The notes under the pieces were generated by a model, which was given only the letters and a program-made list of their open reading frames with translations, was not told the origin of the DNA and did no database searches. The position numbers and the translations under genes were made by a program. This document shows, piece by piece, positions 11,885-50,923 of a stretch of DNA of 63,169 nucleotides. The DNA is from a virus (Duplodnaviria; Caudoviricetes). Each line of letters starts with the position of its first letter. Within the stretch, counting starts at the first letter, position 1. The stretch covers positions 1 through 63,169 of IMG/VR virus record IMGVR_UViG_3300043468_000449; one strand, given 5' to 3'.

Positions 11885-11916
11885 CCGCAGACCCGCATAA
11901 ACACTAGCTTCGCAGG
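11885..11916 (+). repeat. 32-bp dispersed motif, copy B
   Basis: CCGCAGACCCGCATAAACACTAGCTTCGCAGG. Confidence 0.6.
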
Positions 11917-11918
11917 GG

Positions 11919-11989
11919 TTGCAGGAGAGGGAATCGAACCCTCAACTGTAGGTTATGGGCCTACCGAGATACCTTTTCTCTATCCTGCG
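11919..11989 (-). tRNA. tRNA-Met(CAT), initiator-like
   Basis: Full cloverleaf: acceptor CGCAGGA/TCCTGCA with C1-A72 mismatch, D stem GAGA/TCTC, anticodon arm GTAGG-CCCATAA-CCTAC, T arm GAGGG-TTCGATT-CCCTC; no encoded CCA. Confidence 0.9.
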
Positions 11990-11991
11990 AT

Positions 11992-12154: not shown

Positions 12155-15100
12155 TTACTCTATCGGAGATTTCATTCCTGTCAAAGGCGCGGCTGAACCA
12201 ACTGCCGGGGGTTTTAAATCAGATAATAGTTTTTCCGCTTTCGCTAAAGCCACCGCAAGTTTTTGTTTGGTTTTTTCATTCGTAGGATCGACCTCTGATA
12301 ATTCTCGTTTTGTTTTATCGACCTTCAATTCTGCTTTTTCAATTTTCTCCGCTTCTTTCTTGGCATCTTCTTTTTCTTTTTTTCGAGCGGCAACAAGTTG
12401 AGCATACTCTTCTGGAGTTTTTGGTTTTTGAACACCTGTCAAGCCCACCTCTGTGTCATAAGGAAGCAACCTGATTAATTCTTTTTTCTTTGTGCCGTCA
12501 TCTTGATCGATTGTGCGTTCTAACTGGAAAAGCGTTCCGTAATCCAACATCTCTTCGACATTCTCTGCGGCATCTGCGTAGTCAGCAGGTTCAGCACCCG
12601 AAACCTGCGCTCCGTACAATCCAAACAACTCTTTTTCATTGTACCAGAGTGCCGCTTGCATATCGGCAATAGTGATGTCAATTCCTTTTCTGCGGAGTTT
12701 TTTTTGCGCCAGTTCCATTGTCGATTGTTGGAAGTCACGCTCAAGATCGGTGCGAGGCGCGGCAACAGGATCGGCTCGATTTTCTACCCAGTTTTTTGCC
12801 GCCCTACGCAAATCGCTTTTTTGCTTGTATTGTCCGCTACGGAATCGTTTTTCCAATGTAGTAGCCAAATCCAGCATTGCTTGAGGATCATTGAATAGTT
12901 CTTGAATTTCTTCATTGGTTTTTCCAGTCAATTCTGCCTCATCGTAATACTCTACATATTCATAAACCTTTTTTCCGTCTTTCTCTTTTACCTTTTTTAG
13001 TAATGGCTCAAACTTTTCTCCTGCGGCTTTTGCGACATCACTTCGATACTGTTCAATTAGTGCTTTTTGAAAAGCGACATATTGATTTGCCTCTTTAAGT
13101 GGGGCGTGTTGAAAAACATTCCCAAGGATACGATTCCAAGTGCGAGTGTACCACAAGTCAGCAGTCAGCGTAGAATAGTCGCCATGTAGGTTATTGATGA
13201 ACGATCCAATCTTCGGGCCAAACACGCTAAACCCTGTTACCATCTGCTCCGCTTGACCATCAACAGTCAAAGGCTCTCCTTTAAACCATAAATTTTTATT
13301 TTGTTTTAAATATGCATTCCATTCAGAAACTGACATTTTTTTCCTGAATAATTTGTCCAGTTTTTTAATGTCGTTATTCTGTAAAAGTTCATGCAATTTT
13401 AAGAAATTATTTTCAACAGCACGGGTTTCACCGCCGAATGTGCCATACAATTCGCCAACATCTTTTTTAACAAGTTCAGGAAGAGTTTTGCCACCTTCCA
13501 ACAAGAATTGTACCCTCGCCGCCATTTTCCCATTCTCGAAAACATTGTTTCCTTGAGAAGTAATTCCTAGCACCGCATCAAAAATAAACTCTTTATTGGC
13601 ATCATAGTTTTTTGATTTTCGGTCAAGGAACGGGAAGAATTTCGCGTACCTTTCCTTCATTAGTTTTAATGCGGTATCGTACCAACCAATGGCATTCGGT
13701 GCATTTGGGTCTTGCTTCGCTCGCTCAATGTGACCCAAAACCTCGTCTACAATTGTTTCAGAGATGATTTGTCCTGCCCGTGGACTGTAATCTCCCGGCT
13801 CGATAAACCCATCGTCAGCACTACGCTTTTGTAGTGCATACAACAAATCGTCAACTTTTGTTTTTAATTTGCCCTCTTTTGTATAAAAGGAATCTGGAAC
13901 AACGAACTTTTCTGTTCCTTCCAGAATAGGTGTAACTGACCTGCTTAACCCTGTTGCAGGGTACAACTGCTCTCGGATGTAATCTGCAACTTCCTGCCCT
14001 AATCCGTATCGTTCTGCGAATCTGTTCGGGTCGAAAGTGAACCCTTGTCCTGCGAGGACTTTTGCGTAGGGGACAAGAATTGTATCGATGCCCCTTCGGA
14101 GTAATATGGTGAGTCCTCCGGGAGCGGAGTCCCCCCCAACGCCTCGCACTCCTTCCTCCATTCCTCCCTGCTGATTTTGTATATCTGTTTCATTTGTTTG
14201 TTTTCCTGTTAACCAATCTGGAACCCTGACACTCCCATCTTCTGCTGTAAAGTCTGAAGTTGTGTCATAATAAAACGAATCGACAAGAGTATCGTGGAAA
14301 TTTTTAATATTCGCCGCTTTTTGAATTTCAATGAGTTTTTTCCCGAATTCTTTGATCCCATCAAAATTCGCGGCTTTGATGCCTTTGCCATCGACTGTCA
14401 ATGACAACCCATCGATGCCCACTTCTTCCGCTTTTACGAATGCATTTTTGATTTGCTCTTCGGTAAGTTTTTTGTCGTGGACAAGGTAAACAGCAGGCGC
14501 ACCATCGGTGAGTCCTATGCTGGGTTTCCATGCGATCCCGGCATCTTGAGTCATTAAAAATGACAACCATTTGGTCACAGTCTGCGCCTGATCCCAAGTC
14601 ATCCCCGGAGCATTAAACACGAAGCTAGGCTCAACCTCAAATTTCCATGTTCCCAGAATATTGTCGAAATTGATTCCCTGCAACCCAGCCGCATCAACTA
14701 TAAAATCCTTAAATTTTTTAGATTTAAAAATTGTGGTTAATGTCGATTGAAGATCAGGAACCAAAACTCTCCGATCCACCGGGAATTTGAATGGAGGAGG
14801 AGTCATGCCCAGCTTGGCATCATTAATTGCCTTAATAGAACGATCCACCTCGACCATGCGAATTGCATCCCGCAAAGTAAATTCTTTGTCAGGAAGTTCC
14901 TCAAAACCTTCCAAGAGTTTTTTATTCTGTTCGTATATTTCAACATCTCTTTCTTTGAAGGGTTGCTGTTTTGGATCGACATCTTGAATTGCCCACCATG
15001 CTTTGCCGATTGCGGTCAAGGCATCTTTCTTTGCATTTAAATTATCAAGATTTGGATTTAAATAAGACAACAATCTTTCTTTGCGTTGTTCCGCGCTTTC

Positions 15101-18100
15101 CAGCTTCGGCTGAAGTTCAGCTATAGAAGTAAAGTCAAATCCATATCTTCCCGGTTTGCCGCCAATCACAACAGAAAAATCCCCAGCATCTTTCTGCATG
15201 GTTCTTTCAACAGATTTTGGCAAAAATTGAATTGCAGGTGGCATGAATTGAGCAATCGGACCAACAGGCTTATCGTCCTTCTCAAGAATTTTGATTAACT
15301 TGTCATCGAAGACCACATAGTTGCTCGTTCCCTCTCCCGCGCCCCGGCTCAAAGCATCCCAATACCGAATGCCGGGAACCCCTTGCTCCAGCAGAAATTT
15401 AGATGCTTTCGGAGCATCTTCGGCGGGTCTTCCACCAAATGCATTTGTTATGTATACATAAGCCGATTTCCCTGTTATCGATAACGGGTCTGGCATTGGT
15501 TTTTGAAGTCTCTCCAACTCGCCGGGGCGGAATGGTCTTCCACCTAATCGTGTTCCTCTTTGGATAATTGCTTCTCTTGCTTTTTGAGTTTTGTCGAATT
15601 CACTTAAAATTGTAGGAAGAACAGCATCTTGGACTTTTTTGCTTTGTTCACTCAAGGGTTTATCCCAATCCAATAAATCACCTTCTTCAACATCAATATC
15701 AACCTTATACAGGCTACCAACTTGAATTTTGGAAGGGTCTTTTAAACCTTTAACTCCAGCATTGAACCACCAATTTAAAATTTCTTCAGCATAGGCATTG
15801 TCAGTAGCCGCATCTTTTTCATCTTCAAGCATTCTGATTGCACGATCAATAGTTTTACGATCAGGCATCCCTCCACTTTTTCTTGCTTTTAAAGCGTCTG
15901 TTAAAATTCCAAACAAATCAATAATTTGTTGATTTTGAATAACATCTTCACTTGGAGATTCGACTCCATCAATTCTTATGTTTTTTGCTAATTTAGTTTG
16001 GTAGCCTTCTGATACTTGCCTTAAACCTGCAAAATATAATCCCCATCCATAAGCCTGCGCTCCCTCGCCTTCTCCTATTTTTTCAATGCTAAATCTATCA
16101 AAATCGTAAGGAGAACCATGCCATGCAGGAAGATATTGTATTCCCGGTGGTGCAACAACTGCGTTGGAGAATTCTGTTCCACTTTGAATTCGCGAGTTAA
16201 GCGAATCACGATATTGTATTAAATCGTTTGACGCCGATTCAATCTCTTTGAATTGCGAATCAGCAGGCATTTCCTGCACGGGACGCACAGGAGGCTCAAT
16301 ATCGCGCAAAGGCGGAATCATATCGCTAATCCTGCGGTATTGCGTAGGCAGTTCGATGCCTTGCAAGCCTTCTGGTTCAGTAGTTGCGCCTTCAACTTCA
16401 GCAGGCATGAATTGCAACTGCCCTGCGCGAACTACATTCTCCATCTGCGGAGTGATGTTTACTCGCCAGATTGGGGTTGTGTCTCCCTTTCGAGCAAGTT
16501 CTTGAAGTAATTCAGCATCAGTAAAATCATCTATTTTTTTATCAGGTTTTGTAGTAGCAATTTCAGACTTCTCAACCTTGCCACCCATCTTGGATACATA
16601 TTTGCCAATCTCTTTTGGAAGGATCGTGTCGTAGAATCCTTTCATGCCTTCGCCTCCGACATCAAGATCAAGACCTTCAAATTCTGCGCTTGCTAATGAT
16701 GGTTGTGGTGAGGACTTAATTTTTTCAATTGATTGAGCAGAAAGTTCCTTACCAATAAATTCGCTTAATTTTGCTTCAGGAATTTTTTCTTCATTGATTC
16801 TTGATTGACCATCTTTGTATGCACTTAATGCATATGTGTTTTCTCCATCAAGAATTACAACAATAGAGTCAACTTGTTTGCTCAATTTATAGCGTTCAGC
16901 CTGCGTTTCTCCAGTAGTCCAGCCAATCCATTGCTTGCCAGATTCAACGGCATCACGCAATGCTCGTTTGAAGAGTTGTAATGACCAATCTTTGCGGAAT
17001 GGTGCGTCTGGGATTGAGCCGGGAACCTCCCCTGAATTTGCGCTTTTAATCGCTTCTTCTTTTGTTTTTGCCCCAAACCCTACTTGAGTTTTAGAGGCAT
17101 CAAAAACCATCCATTCAGTTCCCGTCTGGCGACCTCCACGATATTCGTATACAGGGACTTCTTCGACAGTCCAACCATCTGGGAGGACATCGCCTTGCCC
17201 TTGGTATCCCTTCTCCCTCCCCGCTTGATGCCGATCAGATTGCAACTCTTCGATAAACAATCCATCGTTGCCTTCAGCATCTGTGCGCTCGTTAAGACGC
17301 ATATGCGCTACATAGTTGGGGATGTCAGGGAAATGAGATGAAGTGTATGATTGATCATCTCGCGAAGCGGCATTGTTCTCGTCTATCCGAATGAATAGTT
17401 GGTCAAGTCTTGCTTGTTGCTCTGGGGTTCTATTATCCGTTTCAAATCTCAATTTTTGATACTCATCCAGTTCGGATTTGGTCAAAAATTTTGATTCTTC
17501 GACTCTTGGCATTGCCATCACAACTTCACGATAGTTTTCACCGCCGGGGAGTTGGTATTTGCCAAATTTAGGAGGTTTAGTTAATCCTTCGCCTTGCAAA
17601 TCTAATTTCTCTGCTCGCGTATTTAAGAATTCATTCTCTCTAAAATACTTTTCAGCAGTCTTTTTGTCGCCACGCCTTTGAGCCTGTTGAGCTAACCTCA
17701 TCACTCGTTCAGCCTCATCGTAAAGCGTATCAGTAGTGCTTTGATCTCTGATGTTCATCAAGCGAATCAACTCATCATACTTCTCTTCGCCAAATGATGG
17801 ATCATCAACGGGATGATCTTTTAGATTTTTATATTCTGCCTCAAGTTCAGCAAGACGATTTGCATCAAATGGTTCTTTGCCGCCAAGTGTTACCTCTTCA
17901 AATTTAACTTGTCCCTCGTCGCGCAGATAATTAAGCAATTCTTGCACGGGAACCTTGCCGTTATTTTCACTTGCAAGTCGGTCGATTGCGTCATTGACTC
18001 CAGACCACTTAACTTCTTCCGCTTTGACATTTTGCGGGTTGTTAATAACTGCCTTCAACTGCTCTGGCGTTGCCATTGCACCACGGAACTTGCTTTGAAT

Positions 18101-21100
18101 TTCCATCTGCAATTTGCTTTGGAATCCACGCTCGCCAGATGGTGCTTCGATTTCGGCAACTTCGGCTGGAAGGAAATTCTTCTTTGCTTTTTCGTAATCT
18201 ACAGGAAGTTTTGGAAGATCACTTGCATCGATTAGTTCTGCCATGTGATCGATTCGCATAGACATAATTGTTCTGTCCATGCTCTTGTTTTTCTCGTCGC
18301 CCTTTCGTTTAGGAATCTTTGTTCGATCAAGATTTAATGCTTCTGTTTCTTTAGTGAATAGATTTAGAAAGTCATTAAATATCGATTTCTTTTGTTCTGC
18401 TACAGCAACATTGTCACTTAACTGATTAGTTCCTTCAGGCTCACCTTTGTCATTATATCCACTACCTTGGATGCCTTTAGACCAATTATCTAAATACTTT
18501 GTAGAAAATTCACTCCAGAATGTTTCTTTGCTTCCGTTCCAAGGAGAAAGTCGATTCGGCATCCGATCTGACCAAGCATTCAACTTCGACATCATTCTGC
18601 CAACTGAAATCGTTGTAACTAGAAAATTGCCTGCTTCGGATAAATGCAATCCAATTGGAACGACATCGTAAATCTTTGGTGAGAATGCTCTGTAGTTACC
18701 TTTATCGTCCATTACTGCGGCATAATCGACAAAGAATCGCGATCCATCTTTTTTGACAATCGCATCGTTTAACTCCAGAAGATATTCTTTAATCTTTAGA
18801 GGCACAATCCCCTCTGGCAATGCTTGAATCGCTTTAATCTGAAGCGGAGTAAAAGTGCCTCGGTAAGTATCGGAACCTTCAGAGACTGCCTCAAATCGCC
18901 CCGGTGTGCCATAGTCGGGCGTGTCGATTGCCTGCTTGAATAGTGTCGCTCGATCTTTCGCGATCTTCTTTAGATCGGCAGGCTTGAGAAGTTTTGGAGT
19001 GATGCCGTCCGCCTCGGTAACAATCTTTTTCGAGATAGCCAGAGTTCCACCTTCGGGAACTTGCAATTGACGCAATTCAACGGGGATTTGCCCATAACCA
19101 TTCAGTCGTTCTTCGCCATCCTTGGTAATGCGCCAAGTGCCTTCAAAAACCGCAGGATCGGTCACATCGACTGGAGTGCCTACAGGATTGCCATCTGCGT
19201 CGAATACCTGCGCCTGAACCTTTGTTGCAAACAATCCAGAGTCCATGCCGTAGCGTTCTGCCGCGATCTTGCTTTTACGAATATCAGCTTTCGAGATAGT
19301 TGCCGTTTCTGGTTGATTTTCAATCGTTGCAAAGTCTCCATTTAAACTCTCCAGCAACCGCATTGCATTTCGAGCGGCACTTTGAACTTCTGGTGGCAGA
19401 TTGGCTTTCGATGCATAGCCGACAACATCTCCAGAAAATCCGAGTCCTAGCAACTTCGTCGTAGCTTTTTTGATCAGGTTGTTTTTAAGTTTTGCCCTTG
19501 CGACATCCAACAAGTGAATGCTTTTTGGATCGATATTTTTACCAAGATTCCGAGAAAGCGTGTTAGAGAACAAGTCTGCAAGAATTTCTTCTTGCATATA
19601 GTCTGCCACATTCTTTCTGCTCAAAGAATTTGTCCCGTAGTCCCAGAGTCCGCTATTTTTTGCAAAGACCTCGATCTGTTTTTTATTGTAATTCTTTAAG
19701 TATGTCTTCTCGTAAAGATCGATCAATTGATCTTCGTTGTAGAGTCCAGTTGTGACTTCTTTAACATTGCCTGCCGCATCTCGGATTTGATTGCTGAATA
19801 GTAATTTTCTTGCTTCAGAAACCGCATCTTGAATTTCTTTGATTCGCAGGATTGCGTGACCTGTTTCGTGATTCAAAGCGTCGATTGGAGTCTCTCCGTA
19901 AATATCAATTCGATTGCGAAGAGCATCCGAATTAATAACAATCGATGGTTGCGCCTGATTGAATACAACATTCTTGACGGCATCGCTAACTTCCATGCCG
20001 GGTCGAAATTCGTTTTGACCTGTTCCACTATAAAATCCCTGCTGTCCTGCAATTTCGTAAATCATCTCGTCAGGCACATCGCGCAATGCAGGATTCTGCC
20101 TGAAATGATTGAAGATTTGATCTGTGCTTAAAATGTGAATGCCAACATTGTTTTGACCCGCTTTAAGCGCACCATTCAGCAAAAGATTATTTCGACCAAG
20201 TGCTGTTAGAAACTGCCTTCCAAATTCGTTTCGAGTCTGAACATTTGCAGTCTTGAGTAACGACAAGGATTTCTTTTCTGCCTCTAGTCTTTTTTCAGCT
20301 TCTTCAATTTTTTTGTTGTCAGGTGACTCGTTTACCAGTTTCTGAACTTCAGCCTCGGTATCTGCTACTCTCTTTGCCTGCCTTCCGATGACCAAGTCCC
20401 AATCGGTCAATTTATCAATCTCACCTCGTGTTTCAGGCGTCGAATCGCGATATGCCTTCAAAGCGTCCATATTGGCTTGCTTTGCCCTCCGAATCTGGAT
20501 CACGGGGTCTTGGCCCACAAACTTGTGATAAGTCTGCTGGACTGCCCTTCCGCCTAAAGAATAAGCCAATCCTTGGCCTACCATAGCCTTTAATTCTTCT
20601 TCGTCGGCAGAATCAATGATTCCAACTGCCAAGCTAATTAAAGTTGGCTCAACTCCCATCCTTGCATATTCACCAATATTAGCAATCGTGTCATCGCCAA
20701 CAAAACGCAGAATGCGTTTAGTAGTATCGCTTACCCTTCCGATTCCTTCGTAATCAACAATGCCTTCATTTTTAACTCTAGATTTTGCTACTTCTAAAGC
20801 CTGCTTCGTTTCAACATATTCATCAGTTCCCTCTGAAAGTGTTTTTAATTTCTGCGTCAAAGTCTTTACTTCATCTTGCTGTTTAGCAATAGCCCCCAAA
20901 GTAGCAAGTGGGCCTACGCTTCCTCCAGCAGATATCCTTCGTGCCGCTTGAACTTCTTTGATAACTTTTGGGATGTCTGCGAGTGTTCGCCCTCCATACT
21001 TCAATCCATACCTAGTTGCCAGCGCACCTAACCCCATTGAAGTCAATGCATTTTCTGGACTCAATTCATATCCAAGTGCCGCGCCGCCAATTGCAGTAAG

Positions 21101-22741
21101 TCCAGTTCCGAGTTTTTGCAATCTCGGACTCCTTTCAATATAATCACCCGTTTTTTCAATTCCTTTTGATACTGCTCCTGCGCCTTGCTCAACCAATCCG
21201 GGTTTTTTCAATGCCTCAAGTCTCTTGAGTTGTTTTGCTTTTAATAGTTCTTGCGCTCGTTTTTCAATCGCATTGATTTGATCATCAGTATAACGCAGTT
21301 TTTGAAAGGTTTTTCGAGCAATAGGAGTCAATTGTCCTGCCGCACGAACAACATTCATTGCATAGCCAACTTGATCAAGTCCAAATGCTTCAGGTAAAGC
21401 TAAATCAGCAAATGCCGCCATTTCTGGATCGGTTTCTGGAATTGATTTTTTAACATCATCGACTACAGAAATAATTGAACTTTCAATGTCAGCTTCGCGT
21501 TTAGATGCCGCTTCCTCTGCACTCAAATCAGGATACATAATCATGTATTCCTTAACTGATGGATGTGTAAGACTAGAAAATGATTTTAATGTTGGAACAT
21601 AATAAGTATCAACAAAACGCTTCCATTCGTTTGGTTGTGCTTTTAACCATTTTGCTTGAGCGGTATCTACTTCGTTTCTTGCGCTCCATCGATTATAGGC
21701 ATCTTCTTTAGATAGAAATCCAAATTTTTCACTTACATTATCCCATGTTTGCATCCCTCCACTTCCAACCTTTTGTGCAGTCCATGTTATAGATGGAGGC
21801 AATGCCGCAATTGGAGCAGTCAAAGAATATGGAACTTGCTTTGCCTTGTATCTCTTTTCTTCAAATTCTTTGTCGATACTAGCACTCTGTTCTGGAGTTA
21901 GATATTCTTTGATTTTAGCAAGATACTTTGCGTCAGTATAAGCATCAGGATTTGGTTGCTCTCCACCTTTTACTGGAGTATTAGCAATCTGCCATGCTCG
22001 TTTACGCCAGCTCTCAACTTCTGCTTTTTTGTCTTCTGGTAATAACTTCTCTGCCGCTTTTGCTTCAGCGTAATCAGATGTCATCCCAACTAATGCTGGC
22101 GCACCTTGAACTACGGCTTTTCCCGCACCATATGCTCCTTGCTCTAAAGATTTAACTAATGTCTCAAATATATCTCCAGCATCTTCGGTAACATTGATAC
22201 CTAAATTAAACCATTCCTCTGCATTCGTTGGAACCTTTCCGTATGGAGATGATTCTCTTTTTTGTCTCTCAAATTCAAATATTTGACGATTTTGCTTTTC
22301 TGTAAAAGTTACATCAGGTCGTATTTTTTTAAATTCGTATAAATTTTCAGGATCAAGTGTCTCAATTAATTGCCTATCTTCTAGCGTAAATTGTTCATCA
22401 GGTTTTTCACCAATTACAGTAGATACAATGTTAATTGGTTTTGAGAAGTCGATCTCTGGCTCCTTTTCTGTAATAGGAGCAGGAGTAGGAGCAGGAGCAG
22501 GAGCAGGAGCAGGTGTAGGCGCAGAAATGGTAGCACCCTCTTCTTTTGGTTCTTCAACTGCCTGCGGAATTTCTTCCTTCGGCTTTTCTTCAGTAGGTTG
22601 TTGAGGAGATAAAACAGAATCAATTTCTGACATTAATGAGTCAGCATCGTCTTCTTTATCTTCCTTCGGTTGCGTTGATTCAGTTTGATCTCCAAGAACA
22701 TTATCAATGTCTTTGAGCAATTCATCAATTCCTTCAGCCAT
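12155..22741 (-). CDS. Giant ejection / large polyvalent protein (3528 aa) with HExxH peptidase-like, GNAT-like, ADP-ribosyltransferase-like and HhH-glycosylase-like segments
   Basis: Last large gene of the virion module; contains [56 protein letters not shown] and [22 protein letters not shown]. Confidence 0.8.
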
Positions 22742-24435
22742 TATTTTTTAAGTTTGATTTGAATTTCACGCAATTGTGCCTTTAAAGCCTCTTTATCGTT
22801 TCCTTCTGGAATTTGTTTAATTTGATTAACTAATTGTCTAGCTGAATTCACTAAATTTTCCGATTCAGGAACCTGTTCTGTAACTTTAAAATTTTCTATA
22901 TCGTATCCAGCTTTTTCTAAATTTCCTATTGTTATTTTTTTTCTGGTTTGCAAAGTATTTAACAAATCATCCATTAATATTTTAGCTACTTTTGGGTCTC
23001 TTTGAATGTTTGGAATTAATGCTTTATATCTACGAACATCATCATCCGTAAGAACTCCAACCTCACCAAATACACCTCTAGCCAACCCCGGAGTTAAACT
23101 ATCAACCAAATTATTAAGCCTTATTGCAAGACTATCATAGCCAACGCCACCAATCAATTGCCTTAATCTGCCAACCATAGGCCCACTTTTATTTCCAACT
23201 TCCGACAATACACCTTGAATATCTTTCAATGTCGCTTCAGCAGAATCAATATTATTGAACTTTTCTAAATGTGCTTGAAGAAGTTTATGTTTTTCTACTC
23301 CTTTCCCTTTTTCTTCAGCAAGTTCTTTAGCGGTTTTTCTTTTTGGAGGATTAACCCTGAATCCTCTTCGTCCTTTTTTAGTAATTACTTGAATTTCTGC
23401 CTCGTTATATTCAGGCCCAAAATGTTCGGCAAGTTGTTTTTGAGATTTCAAAGCGTTTTCATAATTCGCATAATCATTCACAAGATTGCTAATTTGAGTT
23501 TCAACAGGTTGTTGTGGAACTCGCTTTACTTGCTGTCTTTCTTTTTCTGGAAGTGGAACTTTAGTCAAAGCACCCATACCAAGTGGCATCTCGCCTGTTT
23601 CCGCATAAAACTTCTCGGCAATCGCAGAACGCTCTTGCGGAGTCATCAATGACATTGACCTTGTATTAATATCTACACTAGGTTGCGCCTGAACTAGTGC
23701 TTTGCCAGCAACAACATCTGTGGACATTGGCGCAATAATTGGCGCAAGACTTGTGCTTGTCAATTGATCATATTGTTTTTGCGGAGATGCTTCGGCAGTC
23801 AATTCAGAAAGTGGTTTACTCAATAAAGCCTGCACATCTTGTTCAGTTGGGCCAACTGAAGATAATGGGTTTAATACATCTTCAGTTTCTTCTGGCAATC
23901 CTAAATCCCATATTCCAGAAGGCAATTCTTCATCTGTAACATCATAGGCATCCATGTCAGATAAATTTTGTTCATCTGCAAATCCACCTTGATTGCCATC
24001 TTCATCTACAAATCCTTCTTCACCTTCTTCTTGAGCTTTCTTTTTTCTTTCTTCAATTTGAAGTTTAAGATTTTCTAGTTGAGCGTTTTTATACTCTTCT
24101 TTTTGCTTGTCTTCTTCAGCACCTTTAGAACCTCTTGCAATGGCAACAGCAAGTCGATTATCTCTATCAAGTTGTTCTTTTGTTTTTTGTGCTTTAGCTT
24201 TTCTATCATCAACAAATGCCGCAGTAATGCCTTTCAACGCATCACCAATGCCTTCTTTCAAACCACTCGCCCATGCATTGGAAACCAGTTCTGGTTGCTC
24301 GGATTTAACCTCTAAAAACTTTTGAGGCTGAAATTGCAAAGCGGTGTGAATCGCTTTAACTGGTCGCATTCCTTCTAATGGAGATGCAGAACGAATTGTA
24401 GCGAATTGCGGTGTGAAAGAGTATGATTCAGGCAT
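22741..24435 (-). CDS. Internal virion / ejection protein
   Basis: 564-aa helical protein upstream of the giant gene; C-terminal ARG.FGE.GVLTD.D..RY...P segment. Confidence 0.6.
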   Translation of the reverse strand: MPESYSFTPQFATIRSASPLEGMRPVKAIHTALQFQPQKFLEVKSEQPELVSNAWASGLKEGIGDALKGITAAFVDDRKAKAQKTKEQLDRDNRLAVAIARGSKGAEEDKQKEEYKNAQLENLKLQIEERKKKAQEEGEEGFVDEDGNQGGFADEQNLSDMDAYDVTDEELPSGIWDLGLPEETEDVLNPLSSVGPTEQDVQALLSKPLSELTAEASPQKQYDQLTSTSLAPIIAPMSTDVVAGKALVQAQPSVDINTRSMSLMTPQERSAIAEKFYAETGEMPLGMGALTKVPLPEKERQQVKRVPQQPVETQISNLVNDYANYENALKSQKQLAEHFGPEYNEAEIQVITKKGRRGFRVNPPKRKTAKELAEEKGKGVEKHKLLQAHLEKFNNIDSAEATLKDIQGVLSEVGNKSGPMVGRLRQLIGGVGYDSLAIRLNNLVDSLTPGLARGVFGEVGVLTDDDVRRYKALIPNIQRDPKVAKILMDDLLNTLQTRKKITIGNLEKAGYDIENFKVTEQVPESENLVNSARQLVNQIKQIPEGNDKEALKAQLREIQIKLKK

Positions 24436-24965
24436 TACATTCCTCCAAATTGAAGTCCTTGAGCGGACGGGAGTGAGAAGTTAGTGTTTTGTTGAGTTCC
24501 GCCAACGCCAGCATTGGATGCCAGAATAGGTGGAATCCCCATTTGCATAGAAGATGGCGCATTAGTCGAAGCAGGCCCAGCAACGCCGCCTGCCGCCGCA
24601 ATCTTTTGCTGTTGCGCGGAACCTACATTGTAGCCACTTCCGCCTGCGGTAGTGCTGGCGGCATTCTGCGCGGCTTGCTGGTCGAGTCGTTGCTGATTCT
24701 GCGCGGCACTAGTGAAATCTTTTTGAATCTGTGTTTCTGCCTGCCTGCGGAAGTCTGCGGCTTTTTGATTTTCAGCTTGGATGTTCTGTTCACGAATCCT
24801 TGCCGCTTCTTCGTCATCTCTTTTTTTCTTTGCGGCATCTGCGGCTTTTCTGGCATCATCCATTTGTTTCCGCATAGCCGCTTGCTGTGCGGCAATCTGC
24901 GATGAATAGTCAGGTTGACTGCTTCCGCCGCCACTTTTTTTGCCTCCACCTTTACTTCCGCCCAT
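24435..24965 (-). CDS. MGG...FGG-X family protein 3 (putative ejection protein)
   Basis: Starts MGGSKG, Ala/Gln-rich coiled coil, ends FSLPSAQGLQFGGM. Confidence 0.75.
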   Translation of the reverse strand: MGGSKGGGKKSGGGSSQPDYSSQIAAQQAAMRKQMDDARKAADAAKKKRDDEEAARIREQNIQAENQKAADFRRQAETQIQKDFTSAAQNQQRLDQQAAQNAASTTAGGSGYNVGSAQQQKIAAAGGVAGPASTNAPSSMQMGIPPILASNAGVGGTQQNTNFSLPSAQGLQFGGM

Positions 24966-24967
24966 AA

Positions 24968-25468
24968 TTAAGTTCCTCCGAATTGTAGCCCGGTAGTCTT
25001 GGGCATTGTGAATACATTAGTAGTTGTCGGCTGATTTGCTTCCGTAGTAGGAAGATTTGCAGTCCCTCCCATTCCAACCAAAGCGCGTTGACGAGCGGCA
25101 TTTAGATTGTATCCAGCACCAGTCGCCGCCGCTCCTGCGGACAATGCCGCTTGACGCTCTTGCTCCTGCTTTTGCTGATCCGCCATCGTTTGTGCGCTAG
25201 AGATTGCAGAAAGTTCTTGTTGCGCCTTCGACTCTTGTTGCCTACGAAGTTGTGCGGCGGCGGCATTCTGGCTTTCAATTGCCGCTTGCTTTTGTTGTTC
25301 TTCAAGTCGCCTGCGCTCTTCCTCATAGGCTTGCTGTTGCTGTTGATACATCTGCATCTGCTGTTGCATCTGCTGATTGAACATTGCCTGTTGCATCTGC
25401 ATTTCTTGCTGACGCAAGGCTTGCTCTGCTTTTATTTGACTTTTGCTGGGGCCGCCTCCTCCACCCAT
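24968..25468 (-). CDS. MGG...FGG-X family protein 2
   Basis: Starts MGGGGG, Gln-rich, ends FTMPKTTGLQFGGT. Confidence 0.75.
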   Translation of the reverse strand: MGGGGGPSKSQIKAEQALRQQEMQMQQAMFNQQMQQQMQMYQQQQQAYEEERRRLEEQQKQAAIESQNAAAAQLRRQQESKAQQELSAISSAQTMADQQKQEQERQAALSAGAAATGAGYNLNAARQRALVGMGGTANLPTTEANQPTTTNVFTMPKTTGLQFGGT

Positions 25469-25495
25469 AGTTTTATTTTCCTTTCAGTTTATTGT

Positions 25496-26077
25496 TTATG
25501 CCCCGCCGAATTTAATACTCGACATATCAGGCAATGAAAATGTATTGGCAGTTGCAACTTTTGGAGTTGTTGTTGTTGGTTTGTATGTGAAATCGATTGG
25601 CAAATCAGACGGCATAGTTGTATCACTAGTTTTAGTTTGTGCAAGTGTTGCAGTCGTAGGTGATGTTGCCGCAGTTGCAGTAGTTGTAGCAGGTGAAGTT
25701 GTTGCCGCAGTAGTCGTTGGATAGGTCGGAGATTGCGTTCTTAAATTAGCAAGTTTTTCGCGTTGCTGTGCTTGCATATTTTGCAAGACTTGTTGCTGTT
25801 GATGAAAGTATTCAGGATTGGATGACAATCCTTTTGTCATTGGAGCATATGAACTTTGCTTTGGACTAATCCAGTTCATTAATGGCGCACCATAGTTTTT
25901 ATCAACAGTTAACCACTTGCCTCCACTTGTTGGCAAAACATTAAGCGGATCCATTATATTCAGAGGATCAACAACTTTTCGCAATTTAGCCGAATACTTG
26001 CCTAGTCCTACTTGGTGTAGTGGATCAAGATTTTTTGTTACAAATGTGCCAACAGATTTAGTGAATGAACCACCCAT
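25496..26077 (-). CDS. MGG...FGG-X family protein 1
   Basis: Starts MGGSFT, Thr-rich linker, ends FSLPDMSSIKFGGA. Confidence 0.75.
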   Translation of the reverse strand: MGGSFTKSVGTFVTKNLDPLHQVGLGKYSAKLRKVVDPLNIMDPLNVLPTSGGKWLTVDKNYGAPLMNWISPKQSSYAPMTKGLSSNPEYFHQQQQVLQNMQAQQREKLANLRTQSPTYPTTTAATTSPATTTATAATSPTTATLAQTKTSDTTMPSDLPIDFTYKPTTTTPKVATANTFSLPDMSSIKFGGA

Positions 26078-26079
26078 AA

Positions 26080-26361
26080 TTATAATCCTATTTTTGACCT
26101 AGCTTCCAAGCAAAGTTTCGATCCGGGTTCAAATAATCTACACGCAGTAGGTCGGCAATTATAAACAGAACACTTAACTGCGGTTCCAACTTCACCTACT
26201 AAAGCTACGCACCTGTTATTTTCAGTCTTCATCAGAGGATAGTCAGTTCGTTGCATTTCTTGCGGGATGCCAGTTGCATCTGATCGATCTCGTTTGAAGA
26301 TCGGCCATGACCACTTAAAACTGCAACAAGCTCCGCATTTTTCACAATCATAGTTTGTCAC
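26080..26361 (-). CDS. YkgJ / CxxCxxCC family Cys-cluster (Fe-S or Zn) protein
   Basis: DCEKCGACC ... RCVAL.G.VG..V.CSVY..RP.ACR.F..G...CLEAR. Confidence 0.85.
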   Translation of the reverse strand: MTNYDCEKCGACCSFKWSWPIFKRDRSDATGIPQEMQRTDYPLMKTENNRCVALVGEVGTAVKCSVYNCRPTACRLFEPGSKLCLEARSKIGL

Positions 26362-26792
26362 ATTCCGTACATTTTTCCAACCCCAGAAAGCGCACTAGTT
26401 GCCAATGTTTTTCCTGCATTTGCCCATGCGTTACTGACTAATTCAGGGTTCGTGCTATGGATTTCAAATGGATTCATAACCATAAAATTTAAGGCATCTG
26501 GATTATTTTTTAGTTTTTCATTCATCTCTAGTTGTTTTTGCATTTCCAGATATTTCTTATACATTTCAGATTGATTTTGACTCGTCAAAGCGGCAGATGC
26601 TGGACTACTGAAATCAATATCGCTAATACCCTGTGCTAATGCGCCAAGACCTTGACCTATTCTTTTATTTTGCGCTTGCTGTGCATCAAATGCCGCTAGG
26701 TCTGCGGCGGTTGCTTGAGTTGCTTTAGGGACTGTGCCTGCCGCAAATTGCGCTTCGCCTATTTTATTTGTTCCTGTGTTTGCTCCACCCAT
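26358..26792 (-). CDS. MGG-start protein sharing a segment with the 564-aa ejection protein
   Basis: Starts MGGANT; contains PELVSNAWA. Confidence 0.7.
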   Translation of the reverse strand: MGGANTGTNKIGEAQFAAGTVPKATQATAADLAAFDAQQAQNKRIGQGLGALAQGISDIDFSSPASAALTSQNQSEMYKKYLEMQKQLEMNEKLKNNPDALNFMVMNPFEIHSTNPELVSNAWANAGKTLATSALSGVGKMYGM

Positions 26793-26793
26793 A

Positions 26794-27627
26794 TTATTTC
26801 TCCCAAGTTACTGGTTTGAATCCTAAATCTGGTATCACGATATCTTCGTATGGTGCAAGATGTGATATATTTGTCACAGTTGCTTTTAACTTTGGGCAAT
26901 ACACTTGATTGCCTTGATGTCGATCTACACAATTTAAGCAAGTCGGATAGAAGTCTGCGTTCAAAGATTTATCAGGATTGTTTGTCCACCCAGATTTTGT
27001 TTTAATATATCGGGTTGGATCGGCTTTTACTTTGTTATCTTCTAGATATTGATAAATGTCGCGATCAGTCCAATCGCGCATAAGGTAAAGCGAAACGGGA
27101 CTGCCATCAGCATGGCGAATATCCTGCGAAATAGGCACATGACCCTTGATCAAATCAGTATCGGAATTCTTTGTTCCAATCCAAACAGACTCCCACGGCC
27201 AATTAAAGGTTCCTGTGGGTCGTTTTAGGAAGTCATCCACACCGCACATGAATTTCTCGCCTTTCTTTGGACGCTCGGTTCCTAATGACAAAACAACTGC
27301 TTTGGTTCCCCATTGGAAGTAGTGCAGAAGATCAAAGCGCACCTCGCCAGTTTCTGTATCAGGACCATCTGCTAATGCAAATCGGCTTGCAGGGTAGTCA
27401 AAGACAGTCAAATCCCAGTCTCGGATCAATTGATCTGAATACGCATAACGCTCGCGAAATTTCGGTTGCCTAAATTGAATTACAGGGACATCGATTCCAG
27501 CTTGAAATTTGAGCAAATGAAGCATCGCAGTCGAGTCTTTGCCGCCTGACCACAGAACGACAGAATTGGGCCAATTTTTCGCCCATAACTTGGCTTTCTC
27601 GATTGTTTCGTTAATAAGTTGATCCAT
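26794..27627 (-). CDS. PAPS-reductase-family (PP-loop) protein
   Basis: VLWSGGKDSTAMLHL PP-loop, IGTKNSD, DWTDRDIYQYL and C-terminal CLNC...CP. Confidence 0.85.
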   Translation of the reverse strand: MDQLINETIEKAKLWAKNWPNSVVLWSGGKDSTAMLHLLKFQAGIDVPVIQFRQPKFRERYAYSDQLIRDWDLTVFDYPASRFALADGPDTETGEVRFDLLHYFQWGTKAVVLSLGTERPKKGEKFMCGVDDFLKRPTGTFNWPWESVWIGTKNSDTDLIKGHVPISQDIRHADGSPVSLYLMRDWTDRDIYQYLEDNKVKADPTRYIKTKSGWTNNPDKSLNADFYPTCLNCVDRHQGNQVYCPKLKATVTNISHLAPYEDIVIPDLGFKPVTWEK

Positions 27628-27644: not shown

Positions 27645-28517
27645 TTATATGATAATCGCCGCCGCACCGATTGCCGCACCACCAAGTGCCGCACCACTTT
27701 CAATCATCTTCCCTTTTGCGGAATTTTGGCTAATTGCATTATTTACTGCCGCATTGTATAAAGATTGATCATAAGCCTGACGATTTTGTCTTTGAACATT
27801 AGATAGATTTAAAATCTCTCCCATATTTTTACTTAAATAGTCAAAAGTATTCTGTTGTGCTTCTCCAAGTCCAGTCCCTAATTGTTGCGCTCCTGCAAAA
27901 ATATTCTTCTGCCAATCCGCCATTGCGCCAAGGTTCTGCGCTTCTTGTCCCATCCTCGCGCCAATTAAAGTGCCGGGATCAAGTCCCCCAGTCGGGCGTT
28001 GCTGGCTAGAAACGAACCTATTTCGCAGTTCAATATCTTCCAGCATCCGCTTGCGTCCCTCTTCGGTGGACACATCTGCAAGCATGGATCGACCAAAAGA
28101 TGACGAAGGATCGACTCCAGTTCCGCTGACCGCAGAAATGCCTTTATTTTTCAACCAAGCATCCATGCGGTTTTTAAAAGACTCGTCAGAGGTCACCGCT
28201 TCGATTTGCTCTGGCAATTGATACCGCATACGAGCGGTGGCTGGAGAAAGCAACTCTTCGCCTTGCCTTGTTCTTGCCTCATTCGATAAACCAAATTGCG
28301 CGGCTTGCCGAGAAGTCTGCTCTGCATCGAAATCCTGCATCAATGGTTGCGTCTGCCGATACAGATCAAATAACTGACTTTTAGTTCCAATGTCAGCAAG
28401 TTGACCTTCTAATGCGCCTTGACCATATTGAAATTTTTGCGCTAGAATAGCATTATCTGTTTGATAATCAGGTCGGCTCATGTATTGACCCGGATTGACT
28501 GTTGCGGCTCCACCCAT
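27645..28517 (-). CDS. Putative ejection / pilot protein with a C-terminal hydrophobic Gly-Ala helix
   Basis: Starts MGGAAT; Gln/Ala-rich; ends GAALGGAAIGAAAIII. Confidence 0.65.
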   Translation of the reverse strand: MGGAATVNPGQYMSRPDYQTDNAILAQKFQYGQGALEGQLADIGTKSQLFDLYRQTQPLMQDFDAEQTSRQAAQFGLSNEARTRQGEELLSPATARMRYQLPEQIEAVTSDESFKNRMDAWLKNKGISAVSGTGVDPSSSFGRSMLADVSTEEGRKRMLEDIELRNRFVSSQQRPTGGLDPGTLIGARMGQEAQNLGAMADWQKNIFAGAQQLGTGLGEAQQNTFDYLSKNMGEILNLSNVQRQNRQAYDQSLYNAAVNNAISQNSAKGKMIESGAALGGAAIGAAAIII

Positions 28518-28519
28518 AA

Positions 28520-28909
28520 TTAATCCTTTCGTTTAATGTAAAATACTTCTCGATTTAATCGTTCCATTCCTAACTTATCCATGATTTCATTGGTGAATGT
28601 AAATCGCTCACTTTGCAATGGAACTCCAACATAGCCGGGACCACCTGTAAGTTGGTTGTAAACTCGCCAGTCATGCATAGTTTGTATCACATCCCGTGGC
28701 GTTGTAAAATCTGGATGGAAAGCAGGATAAATTGTTGGGATGAATACATGGTCACTATAGCCAACTAGCTTGTTATCTTTGTAATGACCATATACATTGA
28801 TTTGAGGATGATCTACAACCTTGTGATCAAATGTTTCCGCGAAATCAGCAAGTTCAAGAAACTCTGCTGAATCTTTAGGTATTAGCTTATATTCAATTGG
28901 TGATCTCAT
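28520..28909 (-). CDS. Possible GNAT-fold acyltransferase
   Basis: 129 aa with KDNKLVGY strand and IMDKLGMER tail; sits between nozzle and ejection genes as in T7/P22-like podoviruses. Confidence 0.4.
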   Translation of the reverse strand: MRSPIEYKLIPKDSAEFLELADFAETFDHKVVDHPQINVYGHYKDNKLVGYSDHVFIPTIYPAFHPDFTTPRDVIQTMHDWRVYNQLTGGPGYVGVPLQSERFTFTNEIMDKLGMERLNREVFYIKRKD

Positions 28910-28920
28910 GTATTTATTTA

Positions 28921-29172
28921 TTAGTTAAACCCAACAAAAATCTCATCTGGAACTGGGCCTTGTTTAAAACCTGTATACTGCGAAGCAACTTGATCCAAGA
29001 CATCTTGACGATCATTGTATGTGCCGCACAACGCACACGGCAAGCACTCATTTTGATTTTTTTCAAAAGGAATAGACGAGTAGACAGGAACCAGAAATTC
29101 ATCTGCAAAAGGCGAGATGAATTTATTCGGAAACTCTGTCAATCTTTCTTTTGATTTGGCAATACTTGGCAT
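28921..29172 (-). CDS. Hypothetical protein with a CxxCxxC motif
   Basis: 83-aa ORF containing CLPCALC. Confidence 0.6.
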   Translation of the reverse strand: MPSIAKSKERLTEFPNKFISPFADEFLVPVYSSIPFEKNQNECLPCALCGTYNDRQDVLDQVASQYTGFKQGPVPDEIFVGFN

Positions 29173-49237: not shown

Positions 49238-49322
49238 TTGCGTAGGTGGGACTTGAACCCACACTCCGTTTTCACGAAATCGGATTTTAAGTCCGATGCG
49301 TCTGCCATTTCGCCACTACGCA
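49238..49322 (-). tRNA. tRNA-Leu(TAA)
   Basis: Acceptor TGCGTAG/CTACGCA, anticodon arm TCGGA-CTTAAAA-TCCGA, long variable arm, T arm GTGGG-TTCAAGT-CCCAC; no encoded CCA. Confidence 0.92.
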
Positions 49323-50635: not shown

Positions 50636-50923
50636 TTAGTAGTTGATTTTACCTTCTGCGTTTACTTTGCCATGATATCGTTTTGCCCACTCATCTGCTT
50701 GCGATACTGTTTTGAATGATGGGTATTTATCAATCCCATATTGTTTTGCAGTATTAAATGCATCTCTGTCTGATAATTGTTTTCCTTCTACCATTGTTGG
50801 GATGACATACTGCCTGTCATCAATTCCGAATGTTCCCAACTTCACATTGCTTTCGCTCCCATCTGGATTTTTTACAGATGGATGTTTTGTAGGAAAACCT
50901 TTATAAGTTGCACTACCGCCCAT
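50636..50923 (-). CDS. Hypothetical protein starting MGG
   Basis: 95-aa ORF with N.DGS.S...IPTM..GK.L...YP.F.T...AD. Confidence 0.65.
   Translation of the reverse strand: MGGSATYKGFPTKHPSVKNPDGSESNVKLGTFGIDDRQYVIPTMVEGKQLSDRDAFNTAKQYGIDKYPSFKTVSQADEWAKRYHGKVNAEGKINY

Follow-up and report, generated by a model that had tools for sequence, protein, structure and literature searches.

What does a PP-loop gene of the PAPS-reductase type do among the virion genes of a phage? The question is raised by a stretch of 63,169 nt (hereafter, the window), a complete 63-kb phage genome in which such a gene and the gene of a YkgJ-type Cys-cluster protein lie inside the internal-core/ejection gene block. 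An earlier interpretation, drawn from the sequence alone, held that the PP-loop gene is unlikely to function in sulfur assimilation and that the pair has been repurposed for protein or DNA modification. Our results partly support this interpretation. Family relationships, gene order and the N-termini of neighboring gene products suggest that the PP-loop gene probably serves to attach a chemical group to virion core proteins, rather than to feed host sulfur metabolism.

The gene (26794..27627, minus strand) encodes a 277-aa PP-loop ATP-pyrophosphatase-type enzyme with a W-SGGKDS motif at residues 26–32, a GTKxSDxD motif, and DWT..DI..Y in the DWTDRDIYQY region (RDWTDRDIYQYL, residues 184–195). 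Three cysteines, C230, C233 and C244, fall in the segment TCLNCVDRHQGNQVYCPK (CLNC...CP), the central region contains a single cysteine, C128, and the C-terminus reads ...GFKPVTWEK. All the motifs listed in the sequence-only reading are thus present, and both the CC pair and the ECGLH that it reported missing are indeed absent. Its emphasis on a lost central CC pair needs adjustment, however. There is no CC dipeptide, yet one central cysteine remains, the invariant C128, which belongs, with C230-x2-C233 and C244, to a site of four near-invariant cysteines. SGGKDS and these cysteines are conserved in 98–100% of 119 family members, and because those members are just 22–45% identical to the window's protein, such conservation is not attributable to chance.

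CysH carries its catalytic cysteine in a C-terminal ECGLH, and Fe-S APS reductases have CC...CxxC cluster ligands together with an ECGLH tail. No conserved column of the ECGLH type is seen in alignments of 18 or 119 relatives, and the Fe-S ligand set is replaced by C128, C230xxC233 and C244. The window's protein does exceed the gathering score of Pfam PAPS_reduct (PF01507), at 25.7 versus 22.5 bits and over residues 22–74 only. However, it scores 15.1 bits against the NCBIfam CysH equivalog NF002537, for which the cut-off is 154, and hhalign with E. coli CysH gives a probability of 16% over merely 62 columns. Fe-S APS reductases resemble it in fold (VIA Z scores of 12.3–14.1, e.g. 2goy, 7lhr, 4bwv), in the CxxC that follows the DW helix and in having a central cysteine, but the window's enzyme has one C128 rather than CC, a fourth cysteine (C244), no ECGLH and a retained ATP-type SGGKDS. 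These data support the earlier view of the gene: it is not a sulfur-assimilation cysH.

The best relatives by sequence and fold are CysD and the PAPS-reductase-like domain of FAD synthase (FMN adenylyltransferase), which have a true PP-loop in common with the window's enzyme. Alignment with E. coli CysD by hhalign (probability 95.4, E 1.8e-8, 175 columns) indicates a homologous core; the CysD chain 1zun_A is also a PDB sequence match (E 9.2e-9), and the VIA structure matches include the FAD synthase PAPS domain (8rom_A, Z 15.2) and CysD (1zun_A, Z 15.1). Relative to CysD, the window's enzyme has GTKxSDxD in place of an Arg/Glu-rich motif, as aligned by hhalign, and adds C128 and a C-terminal extension of ∼75 residues bearing CxxC...C; the AF2 model is weak precisely at the Cys segments. 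The CysD cut-offs are all missed (36.5 versus 195 for NF003587, 35.2 versus 396.6 for TIGR02039, 30.4 versus 413 for NF009214). Similarity to QueC is lower: Pfam gives no match to PF06508, no more than 16 columns align with E. coli QueC by hhalign, and the VIA scores for QueC-type 3bl5 (Z 7.9) and a Cap9 chain (9nto_B, Z 9.2) compare with ∼15 for CysD and FAD synthase. By sequence, then, the protein is not CysH, CysD, DndC or QueC, as every curated cut-off for these was missed, and sequence and modeled structure place its core closest to CysD and FAD synthase, both adenylyltransferases, with four near-invariant cysteines added.

A phylogeny had been proposed earlier as a check on membership in CysH. 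In a quick, weak tree, the window's protein falls inside a viral clade with 99% support and does not join CysH; as the branches of the E. coli references (CysD, CysH and QueC) are very long, this tree, built without DndC, IbrA or FAD synthase sequences, is informative just for membership in the viral clade. Because the canonical SGGKDS is retained on a CysD/FAD-synthase-like core, we favor an adenylating role. Tentatively, the 277-aa protein may be a PP-loop enzyme that uses ATP to adenylate and has a four-Cys metal site, either Zn or Fe-S; as part of the virion core/ejection operon, it would act on the proteins encoded there.

Its family identity and conserved residues are established here. 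Almost purely viral, the family comprises 562 representative clusters and occurs in 401 viral contigs; no member was found among the 50,697 GenBank phages searched. Mis-annotation, which the sequence-only reading had predicted, does occur: the label 'PAPS reductase/FAD synthetase' is carried by 4 of 120 listed relatives and by the BFVD match A0A6J7XPH8. In the main texts searched, no paper mentions a PAPS reductase together with an internal virion protein or with an N-terminal glycine. The family is kept in hundreds of uncultivated phages, beside virion core proteins that begin Met-Gly-Gly.

The window illustrates this setting. A 709-aa protein of the block matches the phrog_511 internal virion protein (7.3e-7), tail-fibre families lie further upstream, and a giant protein of 3528 aa is encoded downstream, in keeping with the earlier placement of the gene among virion genes, one gene away from ykgJ. 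Directly ahead of the PP-loop gene is a gene for a core/ejection-type protein of 290 aa (27645..28517, minus strand), which begins MGGA, has a Gly/Ala/Ile-rich hydrophobic C-terminal tail and is a candidate substrate or partner. For this protein the ESM Atlas offers leads only (T7_gp14, 0.89; P22_gp7, 0.88), and tblastn of two members of its family against GenBank phages found nothing. Four more proteins of the block have similar N-termini: a 144-aa protein encoded between the PP-loop and YkgJ genes (26358..26792, minus strand; MGGA); a low-complexity protein of 193 aa (25496..26077, minus strand; MGGS), which has a sub-threshold Pfam match to Inj_translocase (E 0.013) and ends ...IKFGGA; a Gln-rich protein of 166 aa (24968..25468, minus strand; MGGG), ending ...LQFGGT; and a 176-aa protein (24435..24965, minus strand; MGGS), ending ...LQFGGM. 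A sixth MGG-start protein, of 95 aa (50636..50923, minus strand), is encoded among head-region genes, away from the cluster, and its membership of the system is uncertain. Six MGG starts are seen in the window, compared to 0.67 expected (Poisson, 7e-5).

The same arrangement recurs well beyond the window. The PP-loop gene always comes directly after that of a core protein whose C-terminal tail is hydrophobic and rich in Gly/Ala, and this linkage holds across lineages down to ∼22–35% identity. Among 124 distinct upstream proteins, 94 have a stop codon that overlaps the PP-loop start, 96 begin MGG and 102 begin MG; the 22 without MG include ∼9 spurious, truncated or split ORFs, and the rest begin MA, MS, MP or ME. 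More generally, 236 of 1294 distinct neighborhood ORFs begin MGG, while the runner-up pair at positions 2–3 is found in 54. Position 4 of the MGG ORFs is most often S (88), G (61) or A (28), together 177 of 236, and positions 8–12 are Pro-rich. The codon for the first Gly varies (GGT, GGA or GGC), but the second is GGA in 193 of 236, compared to 43% GGA usage in the window, and in light of this bias, a constraint at the nucleotide level may contribute to the motif. A myristoylation motif of the NMT type was considered and finds no support, as position 6 shows no preference for S or T. Both the gene linkage and the N-terminal motif are established by these counts.

The YkgJ-type protein (26080..26361, minus strand; 93 aa) has a GTG start that overlaps the stop of the preceding gene, 26358..26792, which separates it from the PP-loop gene. 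It begins ...DCEKCGACC and passes Pfam CxxCxxCC (PF03692) at 39.2 bits (cut-off, 23; 1.2e-9). Eight cysteines (C6, C9, C12, C13, C51, C64, C74 and C84) are conserved in 98–100% of 77 sequences. All 60 close loci have a ykgJ gene after the PP-loop gene, as do 29 of 55 more distant ones and 85 of the 86 loci with a PP-loop protein of 50% identity or more; the two form a recurrent pair. Two relatives described in the literature are N-methylases that depend on an Fe-S or Cys cluster: FliB, a flagellin lysine N-methylase with a [4Fe-4S] cluster and a CX2CX2CC-type N-terminal Cys motif, and DpdM, a YkgJ homologue in phages that acts as a preQ1 N-methyltransferase in phage DNA. The window's YkgJ has a CX2CX2CC-type N-terminal motif and the eight conserved cysteines in common with these, but it is just 93 aa long and matches PF03692 rather than the FliB or DUF3109 models; a methylase role would be by analogy.

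Next to the 290-aa MGG protein, on its upstream side, is a 129-aa protein (28520..28909, minus strand) with a predicted GNAT fold (AF2 pLDDT 79.1). Top PDB matches listed by Foldseek are GNAT acetyltransferases, with E values from 2.8e-4, and nearly all of the best 50 VIA matches are acetyltransferases or other members of the GNAT superfamily (Z 8.3–10.2, with 98–125 of 129 residues aligned). The protein has no Pfam match, to GNAT or otherwise. The CoA pyrophosphate loop of GNAT enzymes reads Q/R-x-x-G-x-G/A; by eye, HPDFTTPRD stands after strand 4, where this motif would be. The GNAT-fold protein is restricted to the window's clade, and a ∼115-aa protein in the same position elsewhere shows no similarity to its family (hhalign probability 0.15). 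At one locus, L138, a SET domain occupies the GNAT position (1.1e-13), and in 2 of 12 long family representatives a SET domain is fused to the PP-loop domain itself. Together, the MGG partners, the GNAT-fold neighbor and the SET fusions and neighbor make protein modification the best-supported reading. Of the two forms of repurposing suggested earlier, it is this one that gains support; DndC-like DNA modification is not supported, as DndC models do not match the window's protein and no Dnd partner genes are seen among the 61 Pfam-scanned proteins.

A possible precedent comes from bacterial defense systems, the only setting in which N-terminal Gly conjugation by PP-loop enzymes has been described, in reports of 2025–2026. 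According to these, Cap9, a QueC-like PP-loop enzyme, adenylates a carboxylate and joins it to Gly2 of CdnD, a protein that begins MGGS; QatB begins MGTS, a G2D substitution abolishes QatC-QatB defense, and Gly modification is proposed there as well. As in Cap9-CdnD (type IV CBASS) and QatC-QatB (QatABCD), where the PP-loop gene adjoins that of a partner with M-G-G-S or M-G-T-S and an unstructured tail, the window's PP-loop gene has an adjacent partner with an M-G-(G/T)-S-like N-terminus and a flexible tail, a working feature and not a sign of family membership. There are clear differences. The window's enzyme is PAPS-reductase/CysD-like, not QueC; the partners are viral virion core proteins rather than products of a bacterial defense operon, with several candidate substrates per genome; and the TGT-like Cap10 partner is absent from the window's system.

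With regard to substrate, chemistry and accessory-protein roles, we infer a pathway by analogy. Methionine aminopeptidase would remove Met1, exposing Gly2 of core proteins that start MGG(S/G/A). The PP-loop enzyme would activate a carboxylate as an acyl-adenylate, on which attack by the Gly2 alpha-amine would yield an N-terminal amide adduct. Enzyme types that modify amines lie in the module: a GNAT fold, SET domains in relatives, and YkgJ, with FliB and DpdM as its N-methylating relatives. The YkgJ and, in this clade, GNAT-fold proteins could have an accessory part, tailoring amines either of these core proteins or of the adduct. Our confidence in the proposal, a carboxylate adenylated by the PP-loop enzyme and then joined to Gly2 of core proteins in the manner of Cap9-CdnD and QatC-QatB, falls somewhat below even. 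The tag could be an acyl group, a nucleobase-like group or the C-terminus of another protein. No 7-deazaguanine genes are found among the 61 Pfam-scanned window proteins. We know of no PAPS-reductase-type enzyme that ligates anything to a protein N-terminus, which counts against modification at Gly2. More doubtful is the general form of the model, in which a large group of uncultivated aquatic phages would use a PP-loop ligase to tag the N-terminal Gly of several core or ejection proteins, and Fe-S (YkgJ/FliB-like), GNAT or SET enzymes to tailor the tag.

PP-loop enzymes adenylate carboxylates, and the one in question might be the alpha-carboxylate of the upstream protein's tail, which would then be amidated, thiocarboxylated, or ligated to an N-terminal Gly, head-to-tail or between proteins. 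No feature of the upstream protein is more universal than this tail, not even MGG: across the 124 proteins, 97% of the last 16 residues are small or hydrophobic. In addition, 75 of the 236 MGG ORFs end in FGG-x. However, the hydrophobic small-residue tail is missing from the other MGG proteins of the window's module, the GG codons of FGG-x lie at the expected ribosome-binding site of the next gene in two of three window genes, and no PAPS-reductase-type enzyme is known to us to act at the C-terminus of a protein. We consider such C-terminal maturation unlikely. The related idea of a ubiquitin- or Pup-like C-terminal GG/GGQ on the ∼115-aa upstream proteins was rejected, as the ending is variable (KKVRL or KATRRK in some) and the GG codons again fall at the next gene's likely ribosome-binding site.

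Similarly improbable is that the enzyme is packaged, ejected or simply made late and, leaving virion proteins unmodified, adenylylates some small molecule or nucleotide inside the host, much as CysD and FMN adenylyltransferase do. The closest relatives in sequence and fold are small-molecule adenylyltransferases, and the gene lies among those of ejected proteins, beside that of the 3528-aa giant, which has a sub-threshold ART-PolyVal match; gene order by itself would fit a packaged enzyme, too. But this explanation does not account for the MGG enrichment, the stop/start coupling or the associations with SET, GNAT and YkgJ proteins. Moreover, no CysN-like GTPase, nor any GTPase/EF-Tu family match, is seen among the 61 Pfam-scanned proteins, a set that does not take in small and plus-strand ORFs.

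Slightly less probable still is modification of nucleic acid, through DndC/SspD-like phosphorothioation or TtuA/NcsA-like Fe-S thiolation of tRNA or DNA, with YkgJ acting on a modified base as DpdM does when it methylates preQ1 in phage DNA. A PP-loop together with a Cys cluster is the TtuA/NcsA pattern, and these enzymes are recovered both by VIA (Z 9.4–11.0) and by Foldseek. One family representative, P0217, has a DNA methylase fused to its C-terminal 83 residues, and the window phage has two tRNA genes. DndC and BrxP likewise have an SGGKDS-type PP-loop and cysteines, but the window's protein is much shorter, and the model scores are only 11–17 bits over ∼30–50 residues (11–18 bits over short stretches when QueC is included). 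The window's protein has no NCBIfam DndC match at E ≤ 0.1; PADLOC DndC matches neither it nor one of three relatives (L119), the other two scoring 11.3–17.1 bits over ∼30 residues. No Dnd (DndA/D/E) or BREX partners, TGT/DpdA or QueD/E are found among the 61 Pfam-scanned proteins, and in every lineage seen the gene is in the core-protein operon rather than in the replication module. The remaining alternative, an auxiliary metabolic cysH/APS-reductase gene that raises host sulfate assimilation, has in its favor a Pfam score barely over the cut-off, the labels given by source databases, and a CxxC position and central cysteine reminiscent of Fe-S APS reductases, but is highly improbable in view of the absent ECGLH and CC pair, the equivalog and hhalign results, the ATP-type SGGKDS and the placement apart from CysH in the (weak) tree.

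If conjugation to Gly2 does occur, it would be the first dedicated pathway for N-terminal conjugation of virion proteins, the viral equivalent of what Cap9 and QatC do in bacterial defense, carried out by a PP-loop ligase family never before linked to protein modification. Such an analogue, from a different PP-loop family and directed at core proteins, would extend Gly-conjugation chemistry to virus assembly or entry. With the tag, ejected proteins might pass into membranes more readily or be better able to interfere with defenses of the Cap9/QatC type. Such a pathway would also provide a function for a family, more than 500 representative clusters in size, that at present goes by the name of PAPS reductase and is treated as a sulfur auxiliary metabolic gene. 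One representative of the family, P0203, carries an intein at the PP-loop.

The 277-aa PP-loop protein (26794-27627, minus strand) barely passes the Pfam PAPS_reduct model (25.7 versus 22.5 bits, residues 22–74 only), and the motifs listed as present or absent in the sequence-only reading all match its sequence. CysD proper was rejected as an identity, with 36.5 bits against a cut-off of 195 bits for the NCBIfam CysD model. PADLOC models of DndC, BrxP and QueC gave 11–18 bits over short stretches in the window protein or in two of three relatives scanned, the third (L119) giving none. An 18-sequence profile aligned with E. coli CysD over 175 columns (probability 95.4%, E = 1.8e-8), and with E. 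coli QueC over 16 columns, which are the PP-loop only. We compared the AF2 model (pLDDT 69.6, moderate, poorest around the cysteines) with 48,161 PDB representatives. The best matches tie: the PAPS-like domain of FAD synthase (Z 15.2, 151 residues, 2.8 Å) and CysD (Z 15.1, 154 residues, 2.5 Å). APS/PAPS reductases rank below these (Z 12.3–14.1), followed by TilS, GMP synthetase, LarE and NcsA; Z was 9.2 for Cap9 and 7.9 for QueC, and Foldseek was concordant with this ranking. Based on the model scores, profile comparison and structure matches, we assign the protein a predicted adenylyl-transferring PP-loop core and a family-specific C-terminal part.

This is an essentially viral family. At E ≤ 0.001, 225 proteins match the PP-loop protein, the best 120 being 58–97% identical; in IMG/VR, a relative is encoded in 401 of 422 candidate stretches. 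Among representatives of clusters built at 50% identity, 562 reach E ≤ 0.001 and 121 reach E ≤ 1e-30. Among 119 full-length members 22–45% identical to the query, the PP-loop residues S27 (98%), G29 (100%), K30 (98%), D31 (99%) and S32 (100%) are kept, as are four cysteines (C128, 100%; C230, C233 and C244, 99%) and D156 (98%), R206 (94%), Y207 (98%) and D225 (93%). Neighbours in the ESM Atlas are 80–100% viral; the one full-length member in BFVD (TM 0.81/0.84) comes from an uncultured phage and carries the name 'PAPS reductase', and just one of 27 genome-contig matches, on a MAG contig, is full-length. No family members were found in 50,697 GenBank phage records, where the window protein and a second relative gave no match as queries and a first relative recovered only generic Bacillus-phage PAPS reductases (23–25% identity over 68–76% of the query). 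Twelve representatives are unusually long. Two of them carry an N-terminal SET domain, two have TPR repeats and a GT9-like part, and one each has an intein at the PP-loop (P0203, with a LAGLIDADG domain), a tail-fibre chaperone domain, or a DNA methylase attached to the final 83 residues. Some of these fusions may be gene-call artefacts.

The 63,169-base record is a complete virus with direct terminal repeats, and its minus strand carries almost all genes, including every feature located next. In the direction of transcription, the block begins with a 1240-aa tail-type protein and a 709-aa protein matching phrog_511 'internal virion protein' (7.3e-7). There follow an 83-aa protein (28921-29172), a 129-aa GNAT-like protein (28520-28909), a 290-aa protein starting MGGA (27645-28517), the PP-loop gene, a 144-aa protein also starting MGGA (26358-26792), the 93-aa YkgJ-type protein (26080-26361), three low-complexity proteins that start MGG and end FGG-x (24435-26077), a 564-aa protein and, last, a 3528-aa protein (12155-22741). 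Packing is tight: coordinates and sequence give the PP-loop gene a 17-nt spacer before it and 1 nt after, while the YkgJ-type gene begins at a GTG that overlaps the stop of its predecessor, and leaves a 2-nt gap after its end. The 3528-aa protein looks like a giant polyvalent ejected protein; its ART-PolyVal match is sub-threshold (E = 6.2e-4, 21 bits versus 31.2). The 83-aa protein, which has a CxxCxxC motif and is conserved at 83–84 aa in relatives, gave no family match. The 144-aa protein, near its C-terminus (26441), and the 564-aa protein, near its N-terminus (24288), share the nine-residue stretch PELVSNAWA; a loose pattern for this motif was found in only 4 of 169 related loci.

Six window proteins start Met-Gly-Gly (MGG), compared to 0.67 expected from glycine usage (Poisson, 7e-5); five of them lie around the PP-loop gene and the sixth is at 50636-50923. 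Of 1294 distinct ORFs in the neighbourhoods of related loci, 236 share this start; the runner-up pair at positions 2–3 is seen in 54. At position 4, the MGG ORFs mostly have S (88), G (61) or A (28), and proline dominates positions 8–12. The first Gly is encoded variously by GGT, GGA or GGC. For the second, GGA is used in 193 of the 236, above the 43% GGA usage in the window, and hence there may be some nucleotide-level constraint on the MGG start. FGG-x ends 75 of the 236. The three window paralogues with this ending share a C-terminal F-[ST]-[LM]-P ... [LI]-[QK]-F-G-G-x, whose GG codons coincide in two of the three genes with the next gene's expected ribosome-binding site.

We located the PP-loop gene in 167 related loci; an ORF ends at its start in 156, yielding 124 distinct upstream proteins. 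Of these, 96 start MGG, and the stop overlaps the PP-loop start in 94. Across the 124, small or hydrophobic residues make up 97% of the final 16 positions, a Gly/Ala/Ile tail. The MG start is lacking in 22, of which about nine are spurious, truncated or split ORFs; the others start MA, MS, MP or ME. The nearest named ESM Atlas clusters, T7 gp14 (0.89) and P22 gp7 (0.88), are leads only. In a recurrent order, a tail-fibre-type protein and a small protein precede the tail-anchored MGG protein and the PP-loop protein, after which come one to four small proteins, a 300–650-aa protein and a giant protein; this order holds in lineages whose PP-loop proteins are only ∼30–40% identical to that of the window.

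The 129-aa protein has no Pfam match. Its model (pLDDT 79.1) matches almost only GNAT-superfamily acyltransferases, including the N-terminal acetyltransferases RimI, Naa50 and NatD. The matches listed by Foldseek are GNAT (E from 2.8e-4), and in an independent search nearly all of the best 50 of 48,161 chains are GNAT (Z 8.3–10.2 over 98–125 of 129 residues); by eye, the canonical CoA loop was not seen. Locus L138 has a SET-domain protein (1.1e-13) at this place, the sole such match in a scan of 105 neighbouring proteins. In other lineages (L098-L167), the place two genes upstream of the PP-loop gene is taken by a ∼115-aa family that starts M-T-P-W-Q, for which profile comparison gave no similarity to the GNAT-like family.

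A YkgJ-type gene lies downstream of the PP-loop gene in all 60 close loci and in 29 of 55 more distant ones, adjacent or overlapping in 26 of the 29. By PP-loop identity, it is found in 85 of 86 loci at ≥50% and 4 of 29 below 50%, some of these four probably being chance Cys-rich frames. The protein is 58–95% identical to that of the window in all but one of the other 76 sequences, with eight conserved cysteines; the exception, from L114 (30%), is probably a chance Cys-rich frame. In high-GC relatives (L132:6384-7070, L134:6483-7070, L124:4649-5098, L152:6252-7073), the YkgJ start codon falls within the P-T-W codons, the last that are conserved in the PP-loop gene, and the frame of the PP-loop gene stays open for ∼85 codons more, spanning the whole YkgJ gene. 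The two genes may overlap out of frame over a long stretch, or the PP-loop protein may have an unstructured extension or be fused to YkgJ by a frameshift.

Dph6, another PP-loop enzyme, amidates a carboxylate on a protein. Cap9, the QueC-like PP-loop enzyme of type IV CBASS, is described as activating the carboxylate of 7-carboxy-7-deazaguanine with ATP and joining it to Gly2 of CdnD, a partner that starts MGGS and loses its Met (bioRxiv 10.1101/2025.04.06.647259). QatC binds QatB, in which the conserved N-terminal MGTS and a flexible tail are reported to be essential and G2D abolishes defence (PMC13279940). FliB, which carries out SAM-dependent methylation of flagellin lysines, holds a [4Fe-4S] cluster through a CX4CX3CC motif that its authors compare with CX2CX2CC of PF03692 (PMC8598068), and DpdM, a YkgJ homologue by description, is the preQ1 N-methyltransferase of some phages (PMC10516641). 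The window system resembles the Cap9-CdnD and QatC-QatB pairs in three features: a PP-loop strictly of the ATP type, a core closest to that of adenylyltransferases, and tight coupling to proteins whose exposed N-terminus would read Gly-Gly-(Ser/Gly/Ala), with a Pro-rich, probably flexible stretch after it. Given these features, we tentatively propose that the enzyme would form an acyl-adenylate from some carboxylate and pass the acyl group to Gly2 of core/ejection proteins, with YkgJ, GNAT and (in other lineages) SET proteins as putative accessory amine-tailoring enzymes; we rate this at somewhat below an even chance. No paper joining a PAPS reductase with internal virion proteins or with an N-terminal glycine was found in the library searched. 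If the proposal holds, a known kind of modification, in which a PP-loop enzyme acts on the N-terminal glycine of its partner, would extend to a new enzyme family and to virions.

The Gly2 reading is conditional throughout because, unlike Cap9 and QatC, the window enzyme comes from another PP-loop family, the MGG start is not universal, and the C-terminal tail of the upstream protein is conserved even better. This last point keeps alive a rival, unlikely in our judgement, in which the tail carboxylate of the upstream protein is activated and possibly joined to an N-terminal glycine. That the protein is a packaged small-molecule adenylyltransferase likewise seems improbable. A nucleic-acid thiolation or modification enzyme is a slightly poorer prospect: the DndC-like option raised from sequence found no backing, as NCBIfam DndC models gave no match at E ≤ 0.1, and neither Dnd proteins nor genes for 7-deazaguanine synthesis or insertion were found among 61 Pfam-scanned window proteins, a set that lies apart from small and plus-strand ORFs and from four large tail proteins compared with PHROGs only. 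The same 61 proteins contained no CysN-like GTPase. A sulfur-assimilation CysH is very unlikely, as the sequence-only reading held: the NCBIfam CysH model gave 15.1 versus 154 bits, an hhalign-type profile match to E. coli CysH covered 62 columns at 16% probability, and a quick tree placed the protein in a 99%-supported viral clade apart from E. coli CysH, CysD and QueC, three sequences on very long branches.

Elsewhere on the minus strand are two tRNA genes, Met (CAT, 11916-11990) and Leu (TAA, 49238-49322). An Sf6-type small terminase gene (135-602, 6.6e-35) and the large terminase gene (54823-56694), both also on that strand, lie toward opposite ends of the linear record; the latter had no tblastn match in GenBank phages. 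A group 1 glycosyltransferase (61574-62707, minus strand) has ∼70% protein identity to those of Synechococcus myophages S-CAM7 and ACG-2014f (51 records), a hint of either a picocyanobacterial host or exchange of genes between cyanophages. Nearby are a second glycosyltransferase (59499-60491), a methyltransferase, a dCMP deaminase and MazG.
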